Origin: Phycisphaerales bacterium
Lineage (GTDB): Bacteria > Planctomycetota > Phycisphaerae > Phycisphaerales > UBA1924
DNA length: 64,000 nucleotides
Direction: 5' to 3'
NCBI GenBank assembly: GCA_019750095.1
Contig: JAIEOW010000045.1
Location: forward strand, 1-64,000
Numbering within the stretch: position 1 is the stretch's first letter; each line of letters opens with the position of its first letter. Position numbers and translations under genes: made by a program. This document shows positions 7,488 to 47,853 of this stretch, one piece after another. Under the pieces are notes generated by a model, which did no database searches, was not told the DNA's origin, and saw only the letters and a list, made by a program, of their open reading frames with translations.

Positions 7488-9293
7488 TCAGCTTCGCGGA
7501 GAGGCTTGTGGCTCGGGCTTGGCTTCGGTGGCAGGTTCGCGCCGAGAGGGAGTTCCCGGACCATCCTGCGAGACCATGTGTTCGAGCATGGTGCCGATGA
7601 GAGCGGTGGTTTCGGCTCCTGAAGCACCTTTGCCACCCGTCACCATGACGCGGGGGGTGATCTGGATGTTGCGCTCGCCGACGATCTTGAGGATCTCGAT
7701 CATGGCGGCGTTGGCCGAGCCGATTTGGGCGGCGATGGACTTGTAGGCCTCGCTCTGGGCGGTGGCCTTGATCTTGATCGACTCGGCCTCGGCACCGGCG
7801 GCGATGACCTGCTTGCGCTTGTCTTCTTCAGCGATCTTGACGGCGTAGGCGGCGGTGGCGAGGCGCTTCTCTTCTTCGGCCTCCTGCTGGACGCGGTTGA
7901 GCTCTTTTTCCTGCTCAGCGGCGCGCTGCTGTTCCTGGAAGGTGACCTGCTTCTGCTTGGCGATTTCGCGGTCGGTCTGGGTCTTCAGAAGATCGCCGAG
8001 CGAGAGCTGGTCGCCCACGGCGCCGATGCGGACGGCGGTGACGGTGATGCCGAAGCGGGCGAGTTGCTCTTTGAGCGTGGTGAGCGACTGCTGCTCCTGG
8101 GCGGAACGCTGCTGGACGTAGTCGAGGGCGCGGACCTTTTCGGCGTTGTTGCGGAAGATGGCGCGGACGGCGGAGTTCATGGCGTTGCGGAAGCGCTCGC
8201 CCTCGTCGTCGCCGAGTTTGGCGACAACGATCGGGGCGTCTTTGGGTTCGACGACGTACTCAACGCGGACGTCGACGGGGAAGGTGAAACCGTCGCTGGT
8301 GCGAACGGTGATCTCGCGCTCTTCGACGGCGGCATCGTGGCGCGGCGTCTTGGAGGTGGACTGCTGATCCTGGTTCTCGGGCTTGGAGCGTTTCTGGCTG
8401 GCGGCCTGGGGCTGGGGGATGTTGGACATTGAGGCGAACGATCCGGCGGCGGCGGCCGCAGAAGTGCCCTGGGCCGAGGTGTAGTGGGCGATCATCTGGG
8501 TGGTCCAGATTTCGGTGACGGTGTAGGCGTCGGTGTTGAGCGGGTATTTGCCCGGGGGAAGCGGATCAGAGAGGACGCCCATCTCGCCGAGGCGGGCGAG
8601 CTTCAGAGCTTCTTCCTCGCTCTTGGGCTTGTCTCCAGCGCCGGCGGCGACGTGGCCGACGATCTGGGTGGGGGCAGAGCCGAAGTTGGCCTTGAGGACG
8701 GCGACTTCACCGGCGAGGACTTCCGTCTGTTCAACCATGCGGACGCGGAAGAGATCGGTGTTGATCGGATATTTGCCGGGCGTGAGGACGGAGACCTGCT
8801 TGCCCTTGGCGCCGTTGCCGGTTGAGAGGAAGTACTGGGCGTCGAGCATCTGCTGGAACTGCTCGCGCGGCCATTCGGGGGCGAAGAGCTGGCCCTTGGC
8901 CATCGGCACGCCGTCGGTGGTTTCGACGAGCCCGACCTGGCCGGATTGGATCTCGATGAAGGGGACGGTCTTCACGTCATAGATGACGGGCCAATACCAG
9001 AAGTGCCAGCCGGAGCGGAGCACGGCGGCCTGGGTGCCCATCTCGCCATTGGTGGCGATGATGCGGCCGTCTTTGAGCCGGGCGCCGAAGGCGTTTTTGA
9101 CGACGATGCCGACCTCACCCGCGCCGATGTAGCGGATGGAAGCGAGGGCGAAGAAGATGAAGAGCGTGGCGACGGCGGCGAGGGCGCAGAGGGCCTTGAG
9201 GATCGGCCCGGGGGCCTTGACCGCGAGCGCGAGAATGCCCAGGGCGAGGAGAATTCCGACGATCAAGAGCAGCAGCGACAGCATCCCAAACTC
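7488..9293 (-). CDS. SPFH/band-7 (flotillin-like) membrane protein
   Basis: N-terminal TM segment, an SPFH domain, and a C-terminal E/A/K-rich coiled coil with flotillin-type repeats; start taken at MLSLLLLIVG. Confidence 0.7.
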   Translation of the reverse strand, partial: EFGMLSLLLLIVGILLALGILALAVKAPGPILKALCALAAVATLFIFFALASIRYIGAGEVGIVVKNAFGARLKDGRIIATNGEMGTQAAVLRSGWHFWYWPVIYDVKTVPFIEIQSGQVGLVETTDGVPMAKGQLFAPEWPREQFQQMLDAQYFLSTGNGAKGKQVSVLTPGKYPINTDLFRVRMVEQTEVLAGEVAVLKANFGSAPTQIVGHVAAGAGDKPKSEEEALKLARLGEMGVLSDPLPPGKYPLNTDAYTVTEIWTTQMIAHYTSAQGTSAAAAAGSFASMSNIPQPQAASQKRSKPENQDQQSTSKTPRHDAAVEEREITVRTSDGFTFPVDVRVEYVVEPKDAPIVVAKLGDDEGERFRNAMNSAVRAIFRNNAEKVRALDYVQQRSAQEQQSLTTLKEQLARFGITVTAVRIGAVGDQLSLGDLLKTQTDREIAKQKQVTFQEQQRAAEQEKELNRVQQEAEEEKRLATAAYAVKIAEEDKRKQVIAAGAEAESIKIKATAQSEAYKSIAAQIGSANAAMIEILKIVGERNIQITPRVMVTGGKGASGAETTALIGTMLEHMVSQDGPGTPSRREPATEAKPEPQASPRS

Positions 9294-9568: not shown

Positions 9569-12352
9569 ATGGTCATGCCATCGGACACTCCTGATCCGGC
9601 TCTGGTGCTTGCCCAGCGTGCGCACGCGCTGCCGGCGGCGGAGCGGGCTGGGTTTCTTGCACGCGAGTGTCGCGGCGATGCGGTACTGGTGCGCCGGGTT
9701 GAGCGGTTGCTGGAACAGCATGATGCGAGAACCGTCGCGGGCGACGCTGGTGAACCCGTGTCGAGCACGCCCGCAACGGGCGACGAACAGCATGATCGCG
9801 TTCGCGGGCGGAAGATCGGGCGGTACACCATTCTTGATGTGCTGGGCGAGGGCGGGATGGGGACGGTGTATCTGGCGGAGCAGGACTCGCCTCGGCGGAC
9901 GGTGGCACTCAAGATGATTCGACCCGGGCTGATCACGCGGTCGTTGCTCCGGCGGTTTGAGGTGGAGTCGGGCGTGCTGGGTCGGCTGCAGCATCCGGGA
10001 ATTGCGCGGGTGTATGAAGCGGGGACAGCTCAGGTCGACGGGACGGATATTCCGTACTTTGCGATGGAGCTCGTGCGCGGGCAGACGCTGACGCAATATG
10101 CCGACACTCGCGAGCTGGACACGCGGCAGCGGCTTGCGCTTCTGGCGATGGTGTGCGACGCGGTACAGCATGCGCACACGCGCGGGGTGATTCACCGGGA
10201 TCTGAAGCCGGGGAATATTCTGGTGGAGGAGTCTGAAGAGTCCGGCGAGCGCGGGACGGCACCGATGCCCACCCGCTGGGGACCAGCGGGCCACCCAAGT
10301 GCGACGATGCTGGGGGATGCGTCGGCGTCACGGTTCGGATTGTCGGCGACACCGAAAATTCTGGACTTTGGTATCGCGCGGGTGACCGACAGCGATGTGC
10401 AGCAGGCGACGATGCAGACGGATGTGGGGCAGCTTGTGGGGACGCTGCCGTATATGAGTCCGGAGCAGGTGGCGGGGAATCCGAGTGAACTGGACACACG
10501 CTCGGATGTGTACACGCTGGGTGTGATTCTGTTTGAGCTGCTCGCCGGGCGATTGCCGCATGATGTGTCGCAGCGGACGATCCCCGAGGCGGTGCGGATC
10601 ATCGGGATCGAACCGCCGACGCGGCTGGCGTCATTGAAGCGTGAACTCCGCGGAGAGATTCAGACGATTGTCGAGAAGGCAATCGAGAAGGACAAGTCTC
10701 GACGCTATCAGTCGGCGCGTGATCTGGCCGATGACATTCGCAGGTATCTTCGCGATGAGCCGATCATGGCGCGGCCCGCGGGGACGGTGTATCGATTCAC
10801 CAAGTTTGCCAAGCGGAACAAGGGGCTGGTGGGCGGGCTGGCGGCAGCGGGTGTGATCCTTGGTCTTGGCGCGGTCGGCGTGAGTTGGCAGGCAGCGCGA
10901 GCGACGGCGGGGTGGGCCAAGGCCGAGCAGAACCTGACTTTGGCGCAGGCGGCGCAGAAGCGTGCGGAGACTGAGGCGGAGAATGCGCGGAGCGTGAGCG
11001 ATTTTCTCTCCGGGATGCTGACGAGCGTGGACCCGGAGACGGCGATCGGGCGCGAGGTGACGGCGCGGGAGTTGTTTGATGCGGCGGTGGTGAACCTGGA
11101 GTCGGGCTCGCGGCCGCCGAGTGTTGAGACGACGATCCGTGCGGCGGTGAGCCAGAGCTATCGGGGGATCGGAAAGGCGGACCTGGCGGTGCCGCATGCG
11201 CGGCGAGTGCGTGAGCTTGCGACCCGGCTGGATGGGGCGGACTCAAAGGCGGCGTATGAAGCGACTCGGAATCTGATCATCGTGCTTGCAGATGCGGGGA
11301 AGTTTGACGAAGCGGAGGAGATGGCGCGGGCCGCGCTGAAGCGTGAAACGGAACAGGCGGTGCCGGATGCGGTGCGGGTTGCGGAGGCCAAAAGCGATCT
11401 GGCGCGGGTTGCGCAGGAGATCGGCAAGGCACCGGAGAGCGTTGGGCTGCTGGAAGACGCGGTCGTGGTGCTGGCGAAGCACCGGGGCGATGAGCACTCG
11501 CAGACACTGTCGTCCCGGAACAACCTGGCGACGTGCTACAAAGCCGTGGGACGGCTGAAAGACGCGGAGAAGATGCAGCGCGAGGTGTACGAGGTGTACG
11601 CGCGGATTCACCCGGCGGAGCACCCGCTGGTGCTGAGCTCGCGGAACAACCTGGCGACGCTGCTGGAGCGGCTGGGGCAGGGGACAGAGGCCGCGGAGCT
11701 GTTTCGCCAGACGCTTGCGGCACGCGAGCGCGTGCTTGGTGCGGATCATGTGTCGACGGCGAATACGCGGCTGAACTTGGGCGTGTGTCTGGCCGGGCTG
11801 GGCAAGCCCGCAGATGCGGAGCCGTTGATCCGGGCGGCGAGCGCCGTGCTGGAGCGTCAGCTTGGGGAGGAGCATCCAAAGTCGCTCGTAGCCATGGGCA
11901 ATCTGGCGTATGTGCTGGAGGATCTGAAGCGATTGGACGAGGCGGAGACGCTGTATCGGAAGGTCGCCGAGATTCGCAAGCGCGGAGCGCGAGGCGGTGC
12001 GGACCCGGAGGTGTGGGGCGCGTTGAACAACCTGGCGATGCTGCTGATGCAGGCGGGAAAGCTGGAGGAGTCACGGGAGCAGTTCGCCGAGTTGATCGCG
12101 GCGTGCGAGAAGAGCCTGCCATCGGATCACTATGTGGTGGGCATCTTTCGGAGCAACTATGGCGAGTGCTTGACCAAGCTGGGTGAGTATGCCGCGGCGG
12201 AGGCGGCGCTGCTCAGAAGCCACACGGTTCTTGTGGACAAGCTCGGAGCGAGCCACGCACGAACGCAGAAGGTGGAATCGCGGCTGATCGCGCTGTATGG
12301 GGCGATGGGGAAGCCGGAGCTTGGGGCGAGGTATCGTTCGGGCGGGAAGTGA
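9569..12352 (+). CDS. Serine/threonine protein kinase with C-terminal TPR repeats
   Basis: Kinase motifs GEGGMGTVYLAE, ALK, HRDLKPGNILV, DFGIAR and SPEQ; a TM segment; TPR_10/12-like repeats (NNLATCY, NNLATLLERLG, LNNLAMLLMQAGK). Confidence 0.85.
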   Translation: MVMPSDTPDPALVLAQRAHALPAAERAGFLARECRGDAVLVRRVERLLEQHDARTVAGDAGEPVSSTPATGDEQHDRVRGRKIGRYTILDVLGEGGMGTVYLAEQDSPRRTVALKMIRPGLITRSLLRRFEVESGVLGRLQHPGIARVYEAGTAQVDGTDIPYFAMELVRGQTLTQYADTRELDTRQRLALLAMVCDAVQHAHTRGVIHRDLKPGNILVEESEESGERGTAPMPTRWGPAGHPSATMLGDASASRFGLSATPKILDFGIARVTDSDVQQATMQTDVGQLVGTLPYMSPEQVAGNPSELDTRSDVYTLGVILFELLAGRLPHDVSQRTIPEAVRIIGIEPPTRLASLKRELRGEIQTIVEKAIEKDKSRRYQSARDLADDIRRYLRDEPIMARPAGTVYRFTKFAKRNKGLVGGLAAAGVILGLGAVGVSWQAARATAGWAKAEQNLTLAQAAQKRAETEAENARSVSDFLSGMLTSVDPETAIGREVTARELFDAAVVNLESGSRPPSVETTIRAAVSQSYRGIGKADLAVPHARRVRELATRLDGADSKAAYEATRNLIIVLADAGKFDEAEEMARAALKRETEQAVPDAVRVAEAKSDLARVAQEIGKAPESVGLLEDAVVVLAKHRGDEHSQTLSSRNNLATCYKAVGRLKDAEKMQREVYEVYARIHPAEHPLVLSSRNNLATLLERLGQGTEAAELFRQTLAARERVLGADHVSTANTRLNLGVCLAGLGKPADAEPLIRAASAVLERQLGEEHPKSLVAMGNLAYVLEDLKRLDEAETLYRKVAEIRKRGARGGADPEVWGALNNLAMLLMQAGKLEESREQFAELIAACEKSLPSDHYVVGIFRSNYGECLTKLGEYAAAEAALLRSHTVLVDKLGASHARTQKVESRLIALYGAMGKPELGARYRSGGK

Positions 12353-14112: not shown

Positions 14113-15213
14113 TCATCCCGGGCAGAACGAGCGTGTCATCTCGCGCCCGATCGCCTCACCCAGGTCGGCCATGAACGGGTCGGCGTCGCGTGCGTAGTCG
14201 TAGCGGTCGGTGTTCAGCTCTTCGGAGTCGTTGGTGTAGAGCGTGGCTGAGATGGCCCGGCGTGACGCGCTTGGGAGGTGCTCGATCACGCCGGTATCGA
14301 GCGAGAAGCCGTAGGCACGCCCGACCTTGTTCAGCACGCGCCACTCTGCACGCGGGCGGACGCGGAGCAATCCGGGTAGCAGGAACTTGTTGGATGCGCT
14401 TGCCTCGGGCGGAGGGGCGTCGAGCGCTGCGATGGTCGCGAGCATGCCTTGGTCGGCGGGCTCGAGGCCGAACCCGCTCTCGCGGCTTTCGGGTGCGAAG
14501 GCCATCATCGTCAGCACATGGAGGTCATGGAGCGAGACGCGGTTCTTCTCAGCGAAGGACATCGGGCGATCGTGATGAGCGCCAGTGCTGTCCACGTACG
14601 CACGGCCAATGCCGAGCCCGGGGATGTTGTCAGATGGAAGGTCAAGATCGCTCGTACGTTCGGCGATCTGGATCTGCCGCGCATCGGCTTGAAAGGAGAT
14701 CCTGGCTGCGCTTCGCGCGCGTTCGGGCGGCTCGTTGGCGCTGAGGCGATGGCGGAGTCGGACGCTTTTCAGACCGGCTGCCCAAGTGATCTCATGCAGT
14801 GCGCGGTGGCCGACGAGATCGTGCAGGAGATTGTGGGCAGGGTTGTCGGAGGTGAGGAAGATCTTGCGTAGCTCGCGTGCGACCGTGGTGGGTTCGGCGT
14901 CGCCGATGCGGAATGGGGTATGGACATGGGGTTCGGTGTCGGCAGACTCGCGTCTCCAGGTGGCGAGCTGTCGCAGGGCGCAGGTGGCGGAGATCAGCTT
15001 GACGGTGCTGGCGGGGTAGAAATACTCGGCGTCGGCGCGGAATGTGATGGTGCGTGTTTCGGCTGTGGCGTGAGCTTGACGATCGGGGAGCGTGCTGAGG
15101 ATAATCTGGAGGCGGTGGGTCTCGGGCTGGTCGAGCATGCGGCGGAGCGTGTCGCCACCTTGGCCGTGGCCCACACCCGTCATGAGCATGCTTTGGAGTT
15201 CGTTCGCGGGCAT
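14113..15213 (-). CDS. Class A beta-lactamase-like serine hydrolase
   Basis: SxxK motif ASTVKL and SDN motif LTSDNPAHN; start chosen at an internal Met so the gene does not overlap the divergent gene starting at 15235. Confidence 0.5.
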   Translation of the reverse strand: MPANELQSMLMTGVGHGQGGDTLRRMLDQPETHRLQIILSTLPDRQAHATAETRTITFRADAEYFYPASTVKLISATCALRQLATWRRESADTEPHVHTPFRIGDAEPTTVARELRKIFLTSDNPAHNLLHDLVGHRALHEITWAAGLKSVRLRHRLSANEPPERARSAARISFQADARQIQIAERTSDLDLPSDNIPGLGIGRAYVDSTGAHHDRPMSFAEKNRVSLHDLHVLTMMAFAPESRESGFGLEPADQGMLATIAALDAPPPEASASNKFLLPGLLRVRPRAEWRVLNKVGRAYGFSLDTGVIEHLPSASRRAISATLYTNDSEELNTDRYDYARDADPFMADLGEAIGREMTRSFCPG

Positions 15214-38704: not shown

Positions 38705-40219
38705 ATGCCGACCCCCTCCCGCCCCGCCCCGACCACCCGAGCCAACGCCCCCCTCACCATGCCCTTCCGCGGCGTGCTCGACATGATCGGCAACACGCCG
38801 ATGCTCGAGCTCTCCAGGCTCGACACCGGGTCTCCCGACATCCGGCTCTTCGGCAAGATGGAGCTGATGAACCCGGCGGGGTCGATCAAAGACCGCATCG
38901 GGCTCGCGATGATCGAGGCCGCCGAGCGCGACGGGCGGCTCAATCCCAACGCCACGCCCACGCCGACGATCATCGAGGCGACCGCGGGCAACACGGGCCT
39001 GGCCCTCGCGCTCGTCGGCAAGCAGCGTGGCTACCACATCAAGTTCGTCATGCCCGACAAGATGTCGCAGGAGAAGATCCAGCACCTGCGGGCGATGGGC
39101 GCCGAGGTGATCCTCACCCGCTCCGACGTCGAGAAGGGCCACCCCGAGTATTACCAGGACATGGCGGCCGCGCTTGCCAAGACCATCCCGAACTCGCTCT
39201 ACGTGAACCAGTTCGGCAACCTCGACAACCCCAAGGCGCACTACGACACCACGGGCCCGGAGATCTGGAAGCAGATGGAGCCCGTCGGCGGCATCGACGC
39301 GTTCGTCTGCGGCGTCGGCTCCGGCGGCACGCTCTCGGGCGTGGGCAAGTTCCTGCGCGAGAAGAACCCCGCGTGCAAGCTGATCCTGGCCGACCCGGCG
39401 GGCAGCATCCTCACGCCGCTGGTGAACGAGGGCAAGGTGGTCAAGCCCGGCTCGTGGCTGGTCGAGGGCATGGGCGAAGACTTTGTGCCCGACATCTGCG
39501 ATCTCAAGCTCGTCAGCGAGGCGATCGCCGTCACCGACGCCGAGGCCTTCTTCGCCGCGCGTGAACTGCTGGCCAAGGAGGGCATCCTCAGCGGCTCCAG
39601 CACCGGGTGCATTCTCTCCGCCGCGCTGACCTATTGCCGCAAGATGGCGGCCCACAAGAAGGTTGGAGGGGGGGGCCCCATGAACGTCGTCACGCTCATC
39701 TGCGACAGCGGGGCCAAGTACCTGTCCAAGATGTTCAACGACTTCTGGATGATCGACAACGGCTTCATCAAGCGGGAAAAGACCGACGACCTCCGCGACC
39801 TCATCGCCCGCCGCCACGACTTCAACGAGGACCACACCCTCCGCGAGACCGACCCGGTGCGCAACGTCATCAAGCGCATGGGCATGTACGGCGTCAGCCA
39901 GATGGTCGTGAAGGACGAGTCCGGCAAGGTCTCGGGCATCGTCGACGAGGGCGACATCCTGCTCGCGGTGAACATCGACGGCGGGGGCCGGGGGGGCGAC
40001 GAGAAACACCCGGGCGAGGGCGGCGCGTTCGACCGCCCCGTGAGCGACTTCATGACCCGCCGCCTCGAGACCATCCGCCCCGAAGCCCCGGTCAGCGCAC
40101 TCATGCCCATCTTCCGCGCCGACCGCGTCGCGATCGTCGTCGACAAGCAGGGCACGTACTTCGGGCTGATCACCAAGTTCGACATGATCAACTACCTGCG
40201 CTCGCAGCTGGTGCGGTGA
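38705..40219 (+). CDS. Cystathionine beta-synthase (PLP-dependent CysK-like domain plus a tandem CBS pair)
   Basis: GNTPMLEL, the lysine motif SIKDRIG and GNTGLALA; C-terminal CBS domains; contains G8 and G7 homopolymer tracts. Confidence 0.85.
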   Translation: MPTPSRPAPTTRANAPLTMPFRGVLDMIGNTPMLELSRLDTGSPDIRLFGKMELMNPAGSIKDRIGLAMIEAAERDGRLNPNATPTPTIIEATAGNTGLALALVGKQRGYHIKFVMPDKMSQEKIQHLRAMGAEVILTRSDVEKGHPEYYQDMAAALAKTIPNSLYVNQFGNLDNPKAHYDTTGPEIWKQMEPVGGIDAFVCGVGSGGTLSGVGKFLREKNPACKLILADPAGSILTPLVNEGKVVKPGSWLVEGMGEDFVPDICDLKLVSEAIAVTDAEAFFAARELLAKEGILSGSSTGCILSAALTYCRKMAAHKKVGGGGPMNVVTLICDSGAKYLSKMFNDFWMIDNGFIKREKTDDLRDLIARRHDFNEDHTLRETDPVRNVIKRMGMYGVSQMVVKDESGKVSGIVDEGDILLAVNIDGGGRGGDEKHPGEGGAFDRPVSDFMTRRLETIRPEAPVSALMPIFRADRVAIVVDKQGTYFGLITKFDMINYLRSQLVR

Positions 40220-40239
40220 GATTGGAACGCGAAGTTCGC

Positions 40240-41040
40240 GAAGTTCTCGAAGGAAGGCCTGAACGCGGAGACGATGCAGGAGGGGCGGAGGGACGCGGAG
40301 AGATGGCTTTGGGTTCGAGGCATTGAGGCAGGGAATCAAGGCAGGAACGCGGAGGAGATGCGGGAGGGGCGGAGGAGCGCGGAGGGATGGCGTTGGGTTT
40401 GAGGCATTGATTCAGGGGATCTAGGCATCAACGCAGAGGAGAGGCAGGAGACGCAGAGGAACGCAGAGAGATGGCCTTGGGTTTGAGGCATTGAGGCGGG
40501 GGATCGAGGCGGGAACGCGGAGGGGATGCGGGAGGGGCGGAGGAGCGCGGAGAGATGGCTTTGGGTTTGAGGCAGTGAGGCGGGGGATGAAGGCATTCAC
40601 GCAGAGGAGAGGCAGGAGACGCGGAGCAACGCAGAGAGATGGCCTTGGATTCAAGCCAAATGCATTGAAGTCATCGATTCCTTGGCTCAAACCAAAACGC
40701 CTCCCTCCGCGTCCCTCCGCCCCTCCCGTCTCGCCTCTGCGTTCCTGCCTTGAACCCAACGCCATCCCTCCGCGTCCCTCCCCCCCTCCTGCATCTCCTC
40801 CGCGTTCCCGCCTTGAACCCAACGCCATCTCTCCGCGTCCCTCCCCCCTCCTGCATCTCCTCCAAGTTCCTGCCTTGAACCCAACGCCATCCCTCCGCGT
40901 CCCTCCGCCCCTCCCGTCTCGCCTCCGCGTTCCTGCCTTGAACCCAACACCATCTCTCCGCGTCCCTCCCCCCCTCCGCGTTCCTGCCTCCCTTCGCGTC
41001 CATCGCGCCCTTCGCGTTTCCATCTCCTCCACCGTTCCAT
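40240..41040. repeat. Palindromic tandem repeat array: about 5 direct copies of an approximately 84-bp unit, then about 5 copies in reverse-complement orientation
   Basis: Units end in GATGGCNTTGGGTTTGAGGCA; the forward block is 40254-40650, the symmetry centre is about 40655-40680, and the inverted block is 40690-41040. Confidence 0.8.
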
Positions 41041-41046
41041 CCCGCA

Positions 41047-41240
41047 CAGGAACAACCGACTCGGGCCACGGAACAGCTCGCCCGGACCTTGGCACCTTTC
41101 ACTCGCGCCCAGCAACGGCTCAACCGTTCCACGCACCGGCTCGGCCGTGCCGAGGCACCGCCCACCCGTTCCGAGGCACGGCTCGATCGTCCCCTGGAAC
41201 ACCTCGACCGTTCCCAGGAACGGCTCTCCCGTTCCCGAGC
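41047..41240. repeat. Tandem array of about 8 copies of a 21-bp unit containing the inverted motif GGAAC-N7-GTTCC, immediately upstream of the 41278 gene
   Basis: Recurring ggctcNNccgttccNaggcac units, e.g. AGGAACGGCTCTCCCGTTCC. Confidence 0.7.
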
Positions 41241-41277
41241 GCTTCAGTGCCCCGCTTGCTGAGCCGATACCCGCGGC

Positions 41278-41970
41278 ATGCCCGACTACATCCCCCGCTC
41301 CGACGCCGAGTACGCCGCGTACATGCAGCACTTTGTGCCCGCGCTGGACTATTGGTGGAGCCGGCAGGGCCTTGATCCCGGCACGCTCGACGAGCTGCTC
41401 TACGCCGCCGGCGACTTTGACGCCGCCTACGCCGCGCACATCGCGCAACAGGCCGCCGCCGAGGGCGCCCGCCACGCCAAAGACGCCGCCCGCGCCCGCC
41501 TGACCGCCGCCGTGCGGCCGCTGGTCAGCTTCGTGCAGAGCTACCCCGCAACGACCGACGCCGCGCGGGCCGAACTGGGCATCACCATCCGCCCCCCAAA
41601 GGGCACGCCCGCCCGCACGCCGTCGTCGCGCCCGCTCGCGCTGGTGGAGAGCGGGCAGCGGCTCACGCACCAACTGCGGCTGGTGGATGAGTCCACGCCG
41701 ACCCGCCGCGCCCGGCCCGCGGGCGTGCTCGGGGCCGAGGTGTGGGTGAAACTCGTCGCCCCCCCCAATGCGGACACCCCCGCGCCGACCGACCCCGCCC
41801 GTGATCCAAGTAGTTTCACGTTCCTGACCATGACCACCCGCCCGAGTTTCCGCGCCGAGTTCAAGGCGGGCGAGGGCGGAAAAACCGCCGTCTACATGGC
41901 CCGCTGGATCAACACACGCGGCGAAAAGGGGCCGTGGTCGGAGATCACGACGGCGACGGTGGCGGCGTAG
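41278..41970 (+). CDS. Hypothetical protein, paralog A of a pair flanking the RM gene
   Basis: 230 aa; shares the N-terminal M-x-DYIP, LGIT, TPTRRARPAGV and C-terminal RW..GE.GPWSE...AT.AA motifs with the 46090 gene; no family recognised. Confidence 0.5.
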   Translation: MPDYIPRSDAEYAAYMQHFVPALDYWWSRQGLDPGTLDELLYAAGDFDAAYAAHIAQQAAAEGARHAKDAARARLTAAVRPLVSFVQSYPATTDAARAELGITIRPPKGTPARTPSSRPLALVESGQRLTHQLRLVDESTPTRRARPAGVLGAEVWVKLVAPPNADTPAPTDPARDPSSFTFLTMTTRPSFRAEFKAGEGGKTAVYMARWINTRGEKGPWSEITTATVAA

Positions 41971-42030
41971 GGCATCGACACGCCGTCCGCAGGACCCGCT
42001 GCGCGGGAAAGACCGGCACCGATGTTTGTC

Positions 42031-42145
42031 GTCTTCGCCCCAACGGGGCGCAGGGATGTAGCCACGGGTGAAGCCCGCGCTTTGCGGGCGCAACCCGTGG
42101 AAAGCGTGTCCCCCGCGCGGGACTGCCCCGGAGGGGCAGAGGGGG
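42031..42145. repeat. Left inverted repeat flanking the RM gene (hairpin-containing)
   Basis: About 85% identical, in reverse complement, to 45780-45868 over about 78 bp; contains the stem CCACGGGT...ACCCGTGG. Confidence 0.7.
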
Positions 42146-42146
42146 C

Positions 42147-45100
42147 TTACTTGAGTGGGATCGTCTTCTTGGCGCAGGCGGCGTAGTTGGCGTTCAAGTC
42201 GTCGGCGAGTTCCAGCAGTGCGGCGATGCGGCGGACGATCTCCGAGACGTAGACCAACTCATCGCCGGTGAGCGGGCGACCGAGGATCGCCTTTTCCCGG
42301 TACGAAAGCCACTTGTTCACGACGGGATAACCGCCGAGCGTCAACGCCCACGCGTCATTGGGCACGTTGCGCCAACCGACGCGCTCGTTGATCCACACGT
42401 CCACCGCGCCTTCGGGATCGGCGTCGTTGGGCGTGACTTTGCCCTCGCGCATCGAGACGCGGCCCTGCTTGTCCACGCTCGCCCAACCGCCGTCCACGAT
42501 CATGTCCTCGTCCGGGTCGATCTGGCCGCCGCCGACCTTGAACGGCACCGCGAGCGAGCGGAGGGCGGCGCGAATCTTGCCCGACGTAACGCCTTCGACG
42601 GCCCGGCCCGGCATAAGCAGGTCCGCGACCAAACGGCCCAGCTTGGCGGAGGTGACGAGCGTCTTGGCTTCGGTCGGCACGGGCACGCGGGGCCAATCGA
42701 CGCGGAGGGCGTCGTGGTTCTGCTGGGCGTAGGCGGGCGCGGCGAGGGCGGCGATGCAGTGAAAGAACACCTCGTCGTTGTGGCTCAGTGCGGCATCGGT
42801 CCAGCCGTGGCCGTCCTTGGTGCGGCCCTTGACACCGTGCGCCTCGCAGATGCGTTCAAGCCACCTCTCTTCCACCCCCGGGCCGATGGATTCGCCCATG
42901 AGCGATTCGTGACGACGCCGCATCGGGAAGTAAGTCGCGTAGGGGTCGAAGAAGTAGTACGAGCCGATGTGCTCGGTGACGACTGGAATCGGGAACTCTT
43001 CGTGCCGGGGCTTCTGCGTACACGCGAGGAAAAGGTTTTCCGGGAAGGCGTTCTCGGCGAACTCGGGACGGCGGCGATGCACGAGCTTCAGCCTGTCCTC
43101 ATCAAACATGTAGCGAGTGTCGAAGGGTTGCCATGCGATAGGCACGACCTTCTTTGGATCGTACTTGAGCTTCTTGGCCTTTGCTTGGGCTCTGACGGAA
43201 GATGCCTCGTATCCCGCTTCGTCGGTCATCAAGTCGGCACAGGCTTCCGCAAGGTCCGCGTCCGACACGGACTTGTCGAAGTACGCCTTCATGCGTTCTT
43301 CCAGCGGTGCGCGGTCCATGTCCACCAGTGCCCGGCCCCGTCCCGGCTGCACGCCCTTGAACGATTCGCCGAGCAAGGCGGGCAAAGTGGGCCACACCAT
43401 CCACTGGGCCGATCGTCGGGTGGGAAGAAGCGACCAACGCCCCTCCAGCGTGGGCGCGGCCTCGCGCGGATTGCCCTCCTTGCGGTCTTTGACCGAAGCC
43501 AGAAGCCGCTCGCGGCGTTTCTCGGCGGACGCGTCGTCGAAATCGCGGAACTCGACGCGGGCCACCGTAGCGGTGCTGGCTTTCTTGTCTCCGGCTCCCT
43601 TCTTGACCATCGTGGCGATGGCGGTACCGATCCGGATACCGGGCGATGTGCCCCGCATGGCGAACACCGTCTCGCTGGCCGCGCCGTCCGGGGCACGCTC
43701 TTTGGCCTTGCGGTCGCCGTGGAGGTTGTCCACGTAGATGGTGTCGAACCCTTGGAGCAAGCGTTCGCGCATGAGGACGTGGGGGATGCCGTTGAGCCAC
43801 GAATAGTTGCTGATGTAGCACACGATGCCGCGCCGCCCCACATCGCCGATGCGCCGCTCGGCCAATCGGAAGAAGCGGATGTAGGGATCATCGAGCGTCT
43901 GCTTGCGGATGCCGAACCGCTCGTTCAGCCCTTCCTTGTACGGTCGGATCAAGTCGCCCTCTTCGTCAAGGGCCACGCCCTTGTTGCCCCGGTACGGCGG
44001 GTTGCCCAGGACCACGAGGATCGGCGCTTCCCGCTTGATCTTGGCGGCGCGGTCCTGCTCGTCTTGCAAGAACCCGAAGGCCAGCGTGCCTTTGGCCCCT
44101 TTGGGCGGCTCCCAACCCGTGAGCGCGTTGGTGAGGTAGACGCTTACCCGCTCATCCTTGCCGAGTTTGCCGCCGAGTCCGCGAAGCAGGATGCCGAGTT
44201 GCAGGTGCGCGACCACGTAGGGGGCGGTCAAAATCTCGAACCCGAAGACGCGCTCGCAGAGGGCTTTCTTCACCTTCGACACGGCGAGCGCGCCGTGCCC
44301 CTGATCGTCGAGCGTGGCGTGGATGCGGCGGGCCACTTCAAGCAGGAACGAGCCGGTACCGACGGCGGGATCAAGCACGAACACGCGGTCATCGGCCAAT
44401 CCGTCCTTGATGCCGAGTTCCGAGCGAAGCAGGTGGTCCACCCGTTCGACCATGTAGCGCACGATCTCCGGGGGCGTGTACCACACGCCCAGTTCTTCGC
44501 GGAGTTCGGGGTCGAACGCTTCAAGGAAGGGCTCGTAGAAGAGCGTGATGGCGTGGTCGGCGTCGAAAGACGCGAAGAACTCGGCGTGATTCACGCGGTT
44601 GAGGCTCGCGGCGGCCCATTCGAGCGTCTCCCGAAGGTCGAGGTCTTTGAGTCGCGTGGGCTTTGCGACTTCGTCAAAGAGGTTGGCGATCAGTGGCAAG
44701 TCCAAGTGCTCGGACGCGCGCCGCCAGTCGAACGCGGGCGGCTTCCTGCCCTTGGGCAGCCCGGCCTTCCAGAGCATCCAAGCCGAGAACAGGCCGTAGA
44801 ACAAGGTCTGGACGAGCGACGAGCGGAAAAACCGCATTCCCTGTTCGTCGGTGAAGGTCAACCCCAGCGTCCGCTCGAAGGCTTCCTGAAGGGGCTTCAA
44901 GTCGTCGATCGAGTGCCGACCGAGCCGGCGCTTGGCCTCGCGGGCGTGGCGGGCCAAGTCCGCCGCCAAGTCCTTGGGCTTGACGATGGGCGAAGGGCGA
45001 GCGAAGACGCCTTCGAGGTAGTCCGTCAGCCCCTGCTCGTGTTCCTCGGCGAGCTTGGCAGGCTTGGCCCTCCAGAAAGCCTCGGATGTCGCGCTCAGGC

Positions 45101-45500
45101 GATAGCGGGTTTCGACTTTGGCCTCGCCCGTCTCGGCATCGCGGGCGACGAACACGAACTCTCGAAAGTTGGTCACCAGCACGAAGCCGTAGCGCTTCCA
45201 ATACTTGGACACTTGGTCCCCGGAGGCGGTGTCATGAATGTTGTCCTTGGTGCCCTTGACCTCAACAACCAGCCGCAGATTCCCCGACTTCTTTTCGAAG
45301 ATGCCAAGGTCCGGCTGGCCCGCGCCCTCCTGCTTCAGCTCCATCGTCGCAAAGAGTTCCGGGTCGAAGTCCTCGCCTATTGCGGTAAGCAAGGCTTCGA
45401 GTTTGCTCTTGTAGGACTGCTCGGCCGTGGCCTTGCCGGTGCCGTGCACATCATGCAGGCCTTCTAAGTATGCAAGGACGGGTGATTTCTTCTTTGACAT
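42147..45500 (-). CDS. Type IIG (MmeI-family / Type IIL) restriction endonuclease fused to an N6-adenine DNA methyltransferase
   Basis: N-terminal PD-(D/E)xK-like region (DLGIFEKK...LVVEVKG ... FVLVTNFREF, compare MmeI YVLVCDFQRF); gamma-class methyltransferase motif I VLDPAVGTGSFLLEV and motif IV LGNPPYRGNKG; 1117 aa. Confidence 0.8.
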   Translation of the reverse strand: MSKKKSPVLAYLEGLHDVHGTGKATAEQSYKSKLEALLTAIGEDFDPELFATMELKQEGAGQPDLGIFEKKSGNLRLVVEVKGTKDNIHDTASGDQVSKYWKRYGFVLVTNFREFVFVARDAETGEAKVETRYRLSATSEAFWRAKPAKLAEEHEQGLTDYLEGVFARPSPIVKPKDLAADLARHAREAKRRLGRHSIDDLKPLQEAFERTLGLTFTDEQGMRFFRSSLVQTLFYGLFSAWMLWKAGLPKGRKPPAFDWRRASEHLDLPLIANLFDEVAKPTRLKDLDLRETLEWAAASLNRVNHAEFFASFDADHAITLFYEPFLEAFDPELREELGVWYTPPEIVRYMVERVDHLLRSELGIKDGLADDRVFVLDPAVGTGSFLLEVARRIHATLDDQGHGALAVSKVKKALCERVFGFEILTAPYVVAHLQLGILLRGLGGKLGKDERVSVYLTNALTGWEPPKGAKGTLAFGFLQDEQDRAAKIKREAPILVVLGNPPYRGNKGVALDEEGDLIRPYKEGLNERFGIRKQTLDDPYIRFFRLAERRIGDVGRRGIVCYISNYSWLNGIPHVLMRERLLQGFDTIYVDNLHGDRKAKERAPDGAASETVFAMRGTSPGIRIGTAIATMVKKGAGDKKASTATVARVEFRDFDDASAEKRRERLLASVKDRKEGNPREAAPTLEGRWSLLPTRRSAQWMVWPTLPALLGESFKGVQPGRGRALVDMDRAPLEERMKAYFDKSVSDADLAEACADLMTDEAGYEASSVRAQAKAKKLKYDPKKVVPIAWQPFDTRYMFDEDRLKLVHRRRPEFAENAFPENLFLACTQKPRHEEFPIPVVTEHIGSYYFFDPYATYFPMRRRHESLMGESIGPGVEERWLERICEAHGVKGRTKDGHGWTDAALSHNDEVFFHCIAALAAPAYAQQNHDALRVDWPRVPVPTEAKTLVTSAKLGRLVADLLMPGRAVEGVTSGKIRAALRSLAVPFKVGGGQIDPDEDMIVDGGWASVDKQGRVSMREGKVTPNDADPEGAVDVWINERVGWRNVPNDAWALTLGGYPVVNKWLSYREKAILGRPLTGDELVYVSEIVRRIAALLELADDLNANYAACAKKTIPLK

Positions 45501-45779
45501 CCTGTCTCCGAAGATTGAGGTTGGTTGGACGGCATTGTACGGTCAGTTCACCGCCAATGCCGGGGCTGCCGCCCCCGGCACCCCCGCTCAAGGCACTCGG
45601 AATGCACGACGATCGCGGCGGGCGGTTCTCTTCCGGGCAGGGAGAGGTGCGGAGAGGGCGGCACGCCCTCTCTGCATCAGCGCGACACAGTGACGGATAG
45701 GTTGGAAACCAGTCCCGGTTGAGCGGGTGTCGGTGGACGGGAGCTTCCTCCGCCCCTGCCGGGGCGGGTCGGGGTGATT

Positions 45780-45868
45780 CACGCTGTCCACGGGTTGCGC
45801 TGCGCTCCACCCGTGGCTACAGCCCGGCGCCCCTCCGGGGCGAAGAGTGAGCGGAGCGGGGCGAAGAG
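45780..45868. repeat. Right inverted repeat flanking the RM gene
   Basis: Reverse complement of 42031-42108; lies about 280 bp upstream of the RM start codon. Confidence 0.7.
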
Positions 45869-46089
45869 GCGCGGCGGTTCATCCTCATATATGTTCCGAC
45901 TCGGTGTGCTCTGTGTCTCTGTGGTGAAAATTCCTGGGGCCGGTGAAGTCGAGCATTTCTCTTGCCGACAAAACCGAAAGTGTCCTCCGCGTGCCGATTG
46001 ACGGCTTGGGTAGCGGCTTGACGCCCCAGCGCAGCGTGTGCAGGGCAGCACGAGCAAGCCGCCGAATCCATTGATGGAGACACTGAATC

Positions 46090-46749
46090 ATGGCTGACTA
46101 CATCCCCGGCCCCGATGCGTCGTTTCAGGCTTGGCAATCCAACTTTGTGACCTACGCCAACGCCAATCTCGCCGCGCTCGGGCTCACCGCGCCGGACATG
46201 GCCCCGATCACGGCCGCGCAGACCGCTTGGGCCACCGCCTTTCCGGCCCACGTCACCGCCGTCAACGCGGCCAAGGCCGCGAAACAGACCAAGGACGAGG
46301 CCCGGGCCGCGTATGTCGCGGTGATCCGGCCGCTCGTGCGCCGGCTGCAGGCGTCCGCCGTGGTGAGCGATGCAGAGAAGGCGTCGCTCGGCATCACCGT
46401 CGCGCAGGCCCCGACGCCCATCGGCGCGCCCACCACGGCCCCCATCTGCTCCATCGAGTGCGGCAACCGCCTCCAGCAGACCCTCCGCTTTGTCGACTCC
46501 GCCACGCCCACACGCAAGGCCAAGCCCGCGGGCGTCATGGGCGTCGAGATCTGGAACAAGGTCGGCACCACGCCCCCCGCTGGCGAGGCCGACCTCCGCT
46601 TCGTCGCCGTGGACACCAACGCGCCGTACGTCATGAACTTTGACTCCGCCGACGGCGGCAAGGTCAACTATGTCTGGATGCGATGGGTCAGCCCCACCGG
46701 CGAGCGCGGGCCGTGGAGCGAGCAGGCCCAGGCGACCATCGCGGCCTAA
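46090..46749 (+). CDS. Hypothetical protein, paralog B of the RM-flanking pair
   Basis: 219 aa; about 35-40% identical to the 41278 gene by manual alignment. Confidence 0.5.
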   Translation: MADYIPGPDASFQAWQSNFVTYANANLAALGLTAPDMAPITAAQTAWATAFPAHVTAVNAAKAAKQTKDEARAAYVAVIRPLVRRLQASAVVSDAEKASLGITVAQAPTPIGAPTTAPICSIECGNRLQQTLRFVDSATPTRKAKPAGVMGVEIWNKVGTTPPAGEADLRFVAVDTNAPYVMNFDSADGGKVNYVWMRWVSPTGERGPWSEQAQATIAA

Positions 46750-46834
46750 CGCCCCGATCATCGACAGCACATGCAGAACCTCCAACGGCCCCGGCACATG
46801 CTGGGGCCGTTGTGCTGCGCGACGGCAGGGGTGA

Positions 46835-47115
46835 TCGTTTCAAGGCTGGGTTTGAACGCGAACGGCGCGAAGGACTCGAAGGAAGGCAGGAACGCGAAGG
46901 GGGGGAGGGAGGTGCGGAGGAACGCGGAGGGAGGCGTGTGGGATCGAGCCAGAGAATCCCGGCCTTGAACCCAGGACCATCCCTCTGCGTTGCTCTGCGC
47001 CTCTTGTCTTTCCTCTGCGTGGATGCCTTGATCCCCCGCCTCGATGCCTCGAACCCAAGGCCATCTCTCCGCGCTTCTCCGCCCCCCTCCGCATCTCTCC
47101 GCGTTCCTGTCTTCC
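46835..47115. repeat. Second, shorter palindromic repeat array of the same 84-bp family (one forward unit, about 2 inverted units)
   Basis: GAAGGCAGGAACGCGAAGGGGGGGAGGGAGGTGCGGAGGAACGCGGAGGGAGGCG, then inverted copies CTTGAACCCAAGGCCATCTCTCCGCGC... Confidence 0.65.
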
Positions 47116-47175
47116 AAAGAGCCCATCGCGCGGTATGCTGCGGCATCGCTCGCGTCCGTCGCCCACATCAGGAGC

Positions 47176-47853
47176 ATGACCATGCCCCGCCTCGGCCCCA
47201 CCTCGCCCGCCGACCATGTTGATCAGCCCGTGCATCCGCCGCTGGACCTGGCCAAGTGGATCCGCACCAACGCCAAGCATCTCAAGCCGCCGGTGAGCAA
47301 CAAGCAGTTGTTTGTGGAGAGCGACGACATGGTCGCCTTTGTCTCCGGCGGGCCCAACACGCGCAACGACTATCACTTGAACCCGACCGAAGAGCTGTTC
47401 TATCAGCTCAAGGGGACGATCGCCGTGCGGATTCGCCCGCTCGACGGCTCGCCGCCGCGGGATGTGGTCATCAAGCAGGGCGAGCTCTTCCTGCTCCCGC
47501 GGTGGGTGCCGCACCGTCCGCAGCGCCCGGCGAACACGCTCGGGCTCATCATCGAGTTTCCGCGGCCCAAGGGCCAGCTTGACGGGCTCCGCTGGTACTG
47601 CCCCAAGTGCGACCATCTCGTCCACGAGGCGCGCTGGCGGCTGAAGAAGATCGACGAAGACCTCAAGATCATCATGGAAGCGTTCTGGGGCGGGCCCGCC
47701 AAACGCCGCACGTGCACCGCCTGCGGCCACGTGATCGAACGCGCGGGCGCGATCGAGCTCAAGGGCGGCAAGGTCAAGGCCACGGCCCGCACATCCGGCA
47801 AACCGCGCGGCGGTGCCAAGCCCGCGTCAACCCGGCCGCGCTCGCGATCCTGA
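47176..47853 (+). CDS. 3-hydroxyanthranilate 3,4-dioxygenase
   Basis: Cupin core NPTEELFYQLKG...GELFLLPRWVPHRPQR; C-terminal rubredoxin-like CPKCDH...CTACGH. Confidence 0.8.
   Translation: MTMPRLGPTSPADHVDQPVHPPLDLAKWIRTNAKHLKPPVSNKQLFVESDDMVAFVSGGPNTRNDYHLNPTEELFYQLKGTIAVRIRPLDGSPPRDVVIKQGELFLLPRWVPHRPQRPANTLGLIIEFPRPKGQLDGLRWYCPKCDHLVHEARWRLKKIDEDLKIIMEAFWGGPAKRRTCTACGHVIERAGAIELKGGKVKATARTSGKPRGGAKPASTRPRSRS

Follow-up and report, generated by a model that had tools for sequence, protein, structure and literature searches.

A rigidly phased array of 21-bp dyad repeats heads a strain-variable defence cassette in Phycisphaerales

The iterons of plasmids P1, F, R6K, pSC101 and RK2 are direct repeats of 17-22 bp, spaced by about 21-22 bp and present in 3-9 copies, whose sequence is specific for the initiator; they are bound by Rep monomers and lie beside the rep gene, an AT-rich region and DnaA boxes. 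Here we describe a tandem array in a stretch of 64,000 nucleotides from the metagenome-assembled genome of a Phycisphaerales bacterium (Planctomycetota; contig JAIEOW010000045.1 of assembly GCA_019750095.1, positions 1 to 64,000 of the forward strand), the whole of which is called here the window. This array of 21-bp units lies directly upstream of a gene called here A and is the conserved non-coding head of an insertable cassette with the order array, A, variable anti-phage cargo, B (a paralogue of A) and hairpin. The reading that we favour, to which we give about even confidence, is that of a cooperative operator array for a putative dimeric DNA-binding protein acting in trans.

Tandem palindromic sites are found in sopC of the F plasmid, where 12 repeats of 43 bp, each with a 16-bp inverted repeat for SopB, are located after sopB, and in ARG boxes, 18-bp palindromes that lie 3 bp apart and thus have a 21-bp period, ARG operators having two such boxes. 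Both have a known cognate protein, encoded next to the sites in the case of sopC. Repeats of another kind constitute ToxI, in which near-identical units of about 36 nt are transcribed, followed by a terminator and processed by the ToxN endoribonuclease. In parC of plasmid R1, 11-bp direct repeats are grouped five and five on either side of a promoter gap of 39 bp; they are bound by ParR, and both ParR and the motor ParM are encoded immediately downstream (PMC2241845). Regarding defence genes, P2-like phages and P4-like satellites carry hotspots at which variable anti-phage genes occupy a fixed site between conserved phage genes and elements that are alike in other respects exchange their cargo (PMC9122126). 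Finally, the anti-BstA element aba acts as DNA; it is a single stretch of 63 bp overlapping the bstA start, and its sequence matches the BstA variant (PMC8585504).

A phased chain of dyads upstream of gene A

The lag-21 identity of the whole window peaks at 41048-41236 (best 189-nt stretch), nearly the coordinates (41047-41240) at which a sequence-only reading had reported about eight tandem 21-bp repeats. At this lag the array reaches an identity of 0.63, the background being 0.31 +/- 0.04 (z = 7.7); the value is only 0.30 at lags 20 and 22, and none of 1000 dinucleotide shuffles matched the observed identity at any lag from 6 to 59. Tandem Repeats Finder delimited 41108-41236, with a period of 21, 6.1 copies, 68% matches and a score of 97. 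The block is therefore real, and ten units can be placed in one register: six proximal units (41117-41242) are well kept, such as GGCTCAACCGTTCCACGCACC at 41117-41137, GGCTCGGCCGTGCCGAGGCAC at 41138-41158, ACCTCGACCGTTCCCAGGAAC at 41201-41221 and GGCTCTCCCGTTCCCGAGCGC at 41222-41242, whereas four distal ones (41033-41116) are degenerate. From the end of the array to the start codon of A we measured 35 nt, close to the 40 bp estimated before, and two more 21-nt frames in phase extend as far as the start codon. The features concerned are the following.

41033 to 41242, forward strand: phased array, unit consensus GGCTCGA-CCGTTCCnaGGMAC
41243 to 41270, forward strand: promoter-like frame in phase with the array, proposed from conservation and spacing
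41278 to 41970, forward strand: gene A, 230 aa, with an N-terminal long helical hairpin and a C-terminal fibronectin-III (FN3) sandwich

Along the array GGAACGG and CCGTTCC alternate, so that the sequence is a chain of dyads of two alternating forms, CCGTTCC-N2-GGAACGG (16 bp) and GGAACGG-N5-CCGTTCC (19 bp). The internal GGAAC/GTTCC dyad noticed in the earlier reading was confirmed: the 19-nt pattern, with up to three mismatches, has seven in-phase sites at 41070-41217 (for example GGAACGGCTCTCCCGTTCC at 41217-41235) and three scattered elsewhere in the window, and its total of 14 matches compares with 2.3 expected. The core motif itself was not found in the window outside the array, and the search for copies near other genes, suggested in that reading for the genome and made here on the window, returned the array only. 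The size of the 16-bp dyad would suit a dimer, as do the cores of other loci. Open reading frames (ORFs) that cross the array have a GC content at third codon positions of 0.60-0.76, against 0.84-0.96 in real genes, and GC by codon position is that of non-coding DNA. A coding repeat is ruled out by these values, which hold for all crossing ORFs, and by the reading frame of A, which is closed just upstream.

For comparison, about 45 loci were fetched from genomes, metagenomes and IMG/VR. They yielded 41 genes of A type without redundancy (identity of 43% or more), with five IMG/VR viral contigs among the loci, and the array was scored on the 147-nt upstream stretch. An array precedes 37 of the 41, with lag-21 (or lag-42) identities of 0.48-0.80. 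The corresponding lag-21 values upstream of 21 typical B paralogues are 0.31-0.44, i.e. no array is present, and the best value upstream of gene B of the window (46090) is 0.37, in agreement with the earlier remark that this paralogue has no such block. Three further weak matches (35-41% identity) carry arrays and are probably divergent A-type genes. Many metagenomic contigs (L221-L224, L035, L038 and L060) end in or beside the array or the conserved 3' end of A-type genes; such repeats evidently break short-read assemblies, and cassette counts from metagenome-assembled genomes are therefore underestimates.

The phase is kept rigidly. In the family of loci with a GTCGCG core, 80 spacings between neighbouring cores are of 21 nt, seven are of 42 nt and none is of 20 or 22 nt, and 9-10 in-phase units are found in 11 of 12 loci despite unrelated left flanks. 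No indel disrupts the phase although the units diverge by about 35%. These values bear on the proposal of the earlier reading that the block might be a contingency minisatellite controlling the downstream gene, and equally on a functionless product of neutral slippage. The unit number does vary between species, the distance to the ATG shifts in steps of 21 and L082 has three consecutive identical units, a sign of recent duplication. By contrast, the array is identical in copy number and sequence in nine contigs from eight samples that encode the same A protein (L216-L224) and in two strain pairs (L003/L004 and L083/L084). Together with the near-constant unit number, the unbroken phase and the retention of the array beside A, this makes a hypervariable or neutral repeat extremely improbable. 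The sequence-only reading as a whole was to be abandoned if the copy number proved invariant and no dyad were conserved in orthologous loci; the copy number is indeed invariant in the strain sets compared, but orthologous loci do carry dyad arrays, which differ in sequence.

Each unit holds a dyad core of 12-16 bp whose sequence varies by locus (GTCGCG..CGAC, GGAGC..GCTCC, here CCGTTCC..GGAACGG). The core GTCGCGTCCGAC(GG) occurs in at least 12 loci and GGAGCGTGYTCC in at least 10, CCGGAGACGTCTCCGG in L007 and CCGTTCCnnGGAACGG only in this window; several other core types exist at other loci. The palindromic families share the form CCG-NNN-N4-NNN-CGG, which reads CCGTCG..CGACGG, CCGGAG..CTCCGG or, in the window, CCGTTC..GAACGG. 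Scanning IMG/VR with the 16-bp palindrome of the window gave 96 single chance matches and no array, and the two main patterns of frame plus core (the frame is described below) retrieved only the five viral contigs already known. A metagenome scan with the bare frame ACTGAAGT-N14-GCCGAT gave 120 hits, all of them by chance, with neither periodicity nor an A gene, this pattern being too unspecific. A more elaborate arrangement is seen upstream of the A orthologue of L085 (9560-9960), where four forward GCCGCCCCCCGCTTTCGCGCGT 21-bp units and six reverse-complement units form a palindrome with 87-nt arms, preceded by an array of 42-bp period; a related G-rich repeat also stands there before a B-like gene (14311-14344).

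As the cores recur exactly every 21 bp, i.e. two helical turns, all of them lie on one face of the helix. A period kept while the sequence is not could also denote a sequence-independent architectural element, in which the two-turn period would curve or stiffen the DNA upstream of a promoter and the cores would drift and homogenise. Such an element would be in keeping with the lack of a cis-encoded binder, and R1 parC, a comparable array, is intrinsically curved (PMC2241845). However, a wedge model used with approximate parameters, which makes this a weak test, gave no consistent curvature: the window array was no more curved than 48 of 100 shuffles, and only 4 of 20 arrays stood out. In addition, independent core families are all dyad-symmetric with a common outer CCG/CGG, which curvature does not require. 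We therefore regard a purely architectural role as distinctly improbable and an operator array as the better explanation of the cores.

A promoter-like frame interleaved with the cores

In an alignment of arrays from different core families, the promoter-proximal 7-nt spacers are alike (...TTGATTY, CTGAAGT, GCCGATG, CGATTC...), and the 12-14 nt cores lying between these constant spacers are wholly different. In the window, the counterpart of CTGAAGT-N14-GCCGATG of other loci consists of TTCAGTG at 41243-41249 (-35-like) and CCGATAC at 41264-41270 (-10-like), followed by 7 nt and the ATG. The frame CT[GCT][AC]A[GCA][TCG]-N14-[GCT]C[CG]GAT precedes 25 of 40 A genes and none of 21 B genes, and random segments contain it in 0.9% of cases. 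Between GAT and the nominal ATG, the distance is 9, 90, 111, 132 or 153, the differences being in steps of 21. It is 9 in this window, L031 and L032, and L019 appears similarly short by eye (GCCGATG-N8-ATG).

From this conservation we infer that CTGAAG may serve as a -35-like and GATnnn as a -10-like element with an 18-nt spacer. One core would then lie inside the promoter spacer and one or two just downstream, and the loci with a short distance, including this window, would produce leaderless or near-leaderless mRNA. In the window the core position between the two elements is degenerate, so that all good cores are located upstream of the -35-like element.

The position of the array directly 5' of a gene in an anti-phage context is also that of tandem direct repeats acting as RNA, either as a structured 5' leader or as a repeated antitoxin-like RNA of the kind found in type III toxin-antitoxin systems. 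Each core is able to form a hairpin of 5-6 bp with a tetraloop, and the palindromic families fold much better than shuffles. The sense strand of the window array, however, folds no better than its shuffles (z -1.3), and in a comparison of 37 arrays the commonest family, GTCGCG, gave z values near 0 on both strands, whereas the families that fold strongly do so equally on both strands, as DNA palindromes must. The units are moreover 21 nt long and 60-70% alike, not near-identical and of 34-40 nt, no terminator was found between the repeats and the gene, and A has an FN3 fold and not that of an endoribonuclease (ToxN/AbiQ). An Rfam search of 40000-47400 gave nothing on the array and only sub-threshold hits of microRNA models on the flanking palindromes described below, which are spurious. 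Should the promoter-like frame be real, transcripts of A would lack most of the array. An element acting as RNA is thus highly improbable, and these results are more easily reconciled with an operator read as DNA.

The array as head of an insertable cassette

The context of the array, which the sequence-only reading had missed, is an insertable defence cassette. In an all-against-all comparison of flanks, conservation between loci was limited to the array, A and B, plus a stretch of about 110 nt that precedes B and a hairpin that follows it; no other conserved gene was found near the array in the fetched loci. In the window, the gene encoding cystathionine beta-synthase (CBS, 38705-40219) is followed by an intergenic region of 1058 nt, A, a type IIG enzyme gene in the opposite orientation and B. 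Beyond A, the cassette comprises the following features.

42031 to 42115, no strand assigned: left element resembling repetitive extragenic palindromes (REP-like; GGGGCGCAGGGATGTAGCCACGGGTGAAGC), inverted relative to the right copy
42147 to 45500, reverse strand: cargo, a type IIG / type ISP restriction-modification enzyme of 1117 aa
45798 to 45858, no strand assigned: right REP-like element, the inverted copy flanking the cargo
45980 to 46089, forward strand: conserved region upstream of B, without 21-bp periodicity
46090 to 46749, forward strand: gene B of 219 aa, a paralogue with 36% identity to A; its copies at different loci are about 85-90% identical
46784 to 46811, forward strand: conserved hairpin after B (AACGGCCCC...GGGGCCGTT), the right limit of inter-locus homology

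The start of A at 41278 is backed by a deposited hypothetical protein of 230 aa that is 100% identical and by the alignment of homologues. Protein A belongs to no Pfam, PHROG or PADLOC family, an exact-sequence look-up of A of the window returned no record, and no match was obtained among INPHARED phages and PLSDB plasmids. Its homologues number more than 500 and nearly all of them are from Phycisphaerales.

Between A and B the cargo varies. Across loci it comprises type IIG restriction-modification enzymes, Dcm with Vsr and a MORC-like ATPase, AAA_21 with DUF3226, an NmeDI-like nuclease, a Dam and SacI-like restriction-modification system, a GT4-conflict/radical-SAM protein and large helicases; as in defence hotspots, variable defence cargo is thus placed between conserved framing genes. 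Inverted REP-like copies (GGGGCGCAGGGnTGTAGCCACGGGTGAAGC) bracket the cargo in several loci, e.g. L082 at 10792-10830 and 15085-15123, and could be bidirectional terminators or sites of cargo exchange. In L001 and L012 a gene of 65 aa is present between the array and A, flanked by 30-nt inverted repeats (ATTCACCACAGAGGCACAGAGAACACAGAG; 7644-7673 and 7919-7948 in L012, equivalent to about 5665-5970 in L001). A similar sequence, CTCTGTGTCTCTGTGGTGAA, is found in the window upstream of B (45905-45935), and this gene with its repeats looks like a small mobile element or one resembling a miniature inverted-repeat transposable element.

The cassette is present in temperate phages of Phycisphaerales and, as an isolated insertion, in the chromosomes of these bacteria. 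It directly follows a capsid gene in L088 and L090 and the helicase gene of a replication module in L086 and L089, is divergent from the large terminase gene in L087 and is next to housekeeping genes in other loci. In L082 (8400-16107) a kdp operon is split by the cassette, which is found between kdpD and kdpC and has an Abi_C gene on the upstream side of its array. In the viral contigs the upstream capsid or helicase ORFs have no stop codon of their own (L086 8735-9853, L089 7617-8735, L088 7645-9891 and L090 380-2482); they read through the array, usually to the TGA of TGACTGAAGT, and gain a heptad-like tail (...GNTLREVGNMLQAARSVFQIGWSLFQLI...), which we regard as a probable accident of a recombination junction. 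Further copies of A- and B-type 3' gene ends, either fragmentary or duplicated, follow B or A in L003 (about 9590-9700), L012 (14481-14564, an 84-nt pseudo-copy with an internal stop), L083 (13208-13451, with a 177-nt duplicate of the end of B plus the hairpin), L006, L022 and L024. These copies suggest repeated recombination at the conserved C-terminal coding region.

An empty site is available in a conspecific strain (L321), in which the CBS gene, 99% identical, is followed directly by the 3-hydroxyanthranilate dioxygenase gene, the flanks being about 97% identical. The array, A, the restriction enzyme and B thus represent a single indel, and presence or absence of the cassette between strains that are 97% identical implies turnover on short time scales. 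The junctions of this indel are inside species-specific palindromic repeat blocks and not at the array.

40218 to 41026, no strand assigned: left palindromic block, with 4.7 purine-rich repeats of 84 nt, an AT-rich centre at about 40650-40700 and 4.5 reverse-complement repeats of 63 nt; it abuts the array
about 40747 to 47109, no strand assigned: segment missing from L321, about 6.36 kb, with ends that are ambiguous within a repeated C(C/T)GCGTTCCTG motif
46862 to 47134, no strand assigned: right palindromic block, smaller than the left one and made of the same type of repeat, on the opposite flank of the cassette

Both blocks are of the repeat type GGAACGCGGAGRGA. The empty site of L321 (3117-3548) keeps one shorter palindrome, in which part of the left block is present. 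The indel may have arisen by insertion or, with at least equal likelihood, by deletion between the flanking repeats. Outside the two blocks the 84/63-nt unit was absent from the window, and neither the other fetched loci nor the viral contigs contained it; the blocks have no internal period of 21 nt, though 84 and 63 are multiples of 21. On the scale of the window, the GC skew is unusually strong and positive over the first 17 kb or so (0.13-0.35 per kb), about zero then negative around 20 kb and rising again after 56 kb.

The variable presence of the cassette raises the possibility that the array is a cis site for its movement or maintenance, such as an iteron-type origin, a centromere-like site, a packaging site or a recombinase-bound end read by a helper phage protein. 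The 9-10 tandem units of 21 bp resemble those of plasmid iterons or of centromeres, loci whose flanks are unrelated cease to be homologous, on the left, at the distal edge of the array, and the upstream capsid and helicase ORFs of the viral contigs enter the array without their own stop codon. The location behind the helicase gene of a replication module in L086 and L089, the second array of L010, which points inward from the opposite side, and the presence/absence polymorphism between strains are also compatible with such a site. By contrast, no initiator, partition nucleoside triphosphatase (NTPase), centromere-binding protein or recombinase is conserved with the array. Regarding an origin, the minimum GC in 40 nt is 55% within 40990-41300, which leaves no AT-rich unwinding region, and the DnaA box TTATCCACA was not found in 40200-41400 with up to two mismatches. 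Regarding a centromere, the layout would be similar to that of the parC, parH or omega sites if the promoter-like frame is real; genes for an NTPase motor and a small centromere-binding protein were not found downstream, where the FN3 protein A and the restriction enzyme are encoded instead. Neither an origin nor an element end needs the fixed orientation, the ATG distances stepped by 21 nt and the promoter-like frame. Neighbouring phage modules vary whereas A always adjoins the array, and the indel junctions of the window lie in the flanking species-specific repeats. A role in movement or maintenance is consequently unlikely, although it would account for several of these observations, and the constant association with A and its promoter-like frame argues for an operator.

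Proposed action of the array and comparison with known systems

Of the two interpretations offered by the sequence-only reading, an array of operator sites for a dimeric regulator is the better supported, by the dyad cores, by two-turn phasing in about 40 orthologous loci and by the interleaved promoter-like frame. In such a mechanism, about ten phased binding sites at the DNA level would be joined in phase to the promoter of A. The host, a resident prophage or an incoming phage would supply in trans a dimeric protein that recognises a specific sequence; binding cooperatively along about 200 bp, this protein would set the transcription of A, possibly of the cargo too. In most loci, where cores would also occupy the -35/-10 spacer and the first downstream positions, the layout suggests a repressor. 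In the window, where the good cores are all upstream of the -35-like element and the leader is missing, the layout would equally suit an activator.

Several observations weigh against this mechanism. A search for a promoter with the standard sigma-70 consensus found none, and conservation and spacing are the whole basis of the promoter assignment. No DNA-binding fold was detected in A (helical hairpin plus FN3), and no candidate binding protein is encoded among the cassette genes. The identity of residues 1-60 of A is 0.65 within core types and 0.64 between them, and that of the first 60 alignment columns of B is 0.83 in both comparisons, i.e. neither protein co-varies with the core. Two arrays with different cores are present in the single locus L010, the second facing inward from the other side, so that several binders per genome would be needed. 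Finally, the GTCGCG core is essentially absent outside arrays within about 10 kb at other loci and, as the core of the window is likewise confined to its array, nothing points to a regulon or to a regulator gene under its own control.

A and B as cognate binders are made improbable by this lack of co-variation. The short N-terminal arm of A does follow the core type (MARSGEH or MARGGSN), except in L086, where GGAGC cores are found with MARSGEH; this exception breaks the association, which thus reflects physical linkage of adjacent DNA. A and B matched no initiator family in Pfam, PHROG, PADLOC or solved structures. The cores as recognition sites of the cargo enzyme are ruled out as well, a single core family being paired with many cargoes: the GTCGCG core is found with helicase, methyltransferase, NmeDI-like and Dam/SacI-like cargo. 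The binder, if any, would therefore act in trans. Candidate trans partners of the array or of its promoter are encoded by L089, one of the phages carrying a cassette: an XRE-type repressor accompanied by an ImmA-like metalloprotease, and a sigma factor of RNA polymerase (279-1372 and 3773-4351).

The same data can be read in a less conventional manner, for which aba offers a precedent by analogy. The array might be a self-marker or decoy at the DNA level, like aba of BstA, whose sites would titrate or license a protein of the carrier phage or of an invader and whose core swaps would give cognate specificity. A short cognate DNA-acting element located 5' of a prophage defence locus is indeed on record (PMC8585504). 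In the present case the core types are diversified in a constant frame and differing types occur in one genome, the motif is confined to the array and the cassette carries defence genes. However, the BstA element matches the variant of the adjacent protein, whereas here A, B and the cargo do not track the core type, the GTCGCG core being indifferent to the cargo that it accompanies. We consider a self-marker or decoy very unlikely. An extension of the operator array, which we judge quite unlikely, would make it the recognition head of a portable defence cassette, its swappable cores being read by trans proteins supplied by phages (resident repressor, helper or invader). If so, the cassette would be switched on, or marked as self, by whichever phage is present, and the array would be a DNA-encoded phage-sensing switch of diversifying specificity, not an ordinary autoregulated operator.

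Literature searches returned no description of the cassette or of the array. What is new here is a conserved, rigidly phased array of about 200 bp, the wholesale replacement of its cores with a fixed interleaved promoter-like frame, and its position at the head of a strain-variable cassette without earlier description. The FN3 proteins associated with the array form an uncharacterised family of more than 500 members, which bracket variable anti-phage genes in a phylum that has received little study, and the cassette provides a compact marker for discovering new defence genes in Planctomycetota. If the array is a control element, it would give a handle on the regulation of phage-borne defence genes, on a protein family reading CCG-N10-CGG dyads and on the exchange of specificity at ten sites at once with a fixed promoter.

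As regards known systems, the cassette resembles the P2/P4 hotspots (PMC9122126), the framing genes being here the paralogues A and B. It differs from them in that it is also found alone in chromosomes and at varied positions of phage genomes. To our knowledge, a phased repeat array at the head has not been described for the P2/P4 hotspots. The likeness to aba lies in a DNA element 5' of a prophage defence locus with variant-specific sequences, and the difference in a periodic array of 200 bp whose core does not track the adjacent proteins. Like ToxI, the array consists of direct repeats in tandem that immediately precede a gene of an anti-phage locus; the other features of ToxI are absent here. 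It is like sopC and the ARG boxes in having tandem palindromic sites of 16-18 bp, and the ARG boxes share the 21-bp spacing of centres; the period of sopC is 43 bp compared to 21 bp here, and ARG operators have two boxes compared to ten here. Iterons are alike in the size of the tandem repeats (17-22 bp) and in their spacing (about 21-22 bp), but no rep gene, AT-rich region or DnaA boxes accompany the present array. The array did not pass the defining tests of origins, centromeres and type III antitoxins. Phased arrays that double as operators are known from plasmid partition and replication, and this one has neither of the usual partners. The closest in kind would appear, by analogy, to be promoter-embedded iteron arrays such as R1 parC (PMC2241845). 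Both have about ten short tandem repeats and extend over 160-200 bp, and an arrangement around or interleaved with a promoter, cooperative binding of a dimer and a role as operator, known for parC, would be shared if the mechanism proposed here holds (PMC2241845). They differ in that the units are here of 21 bp with dyad cores, and in that an FN3 protein and defence cargo are encoded downstream in place of a ribbon-helix-helix protein and an NTPase.

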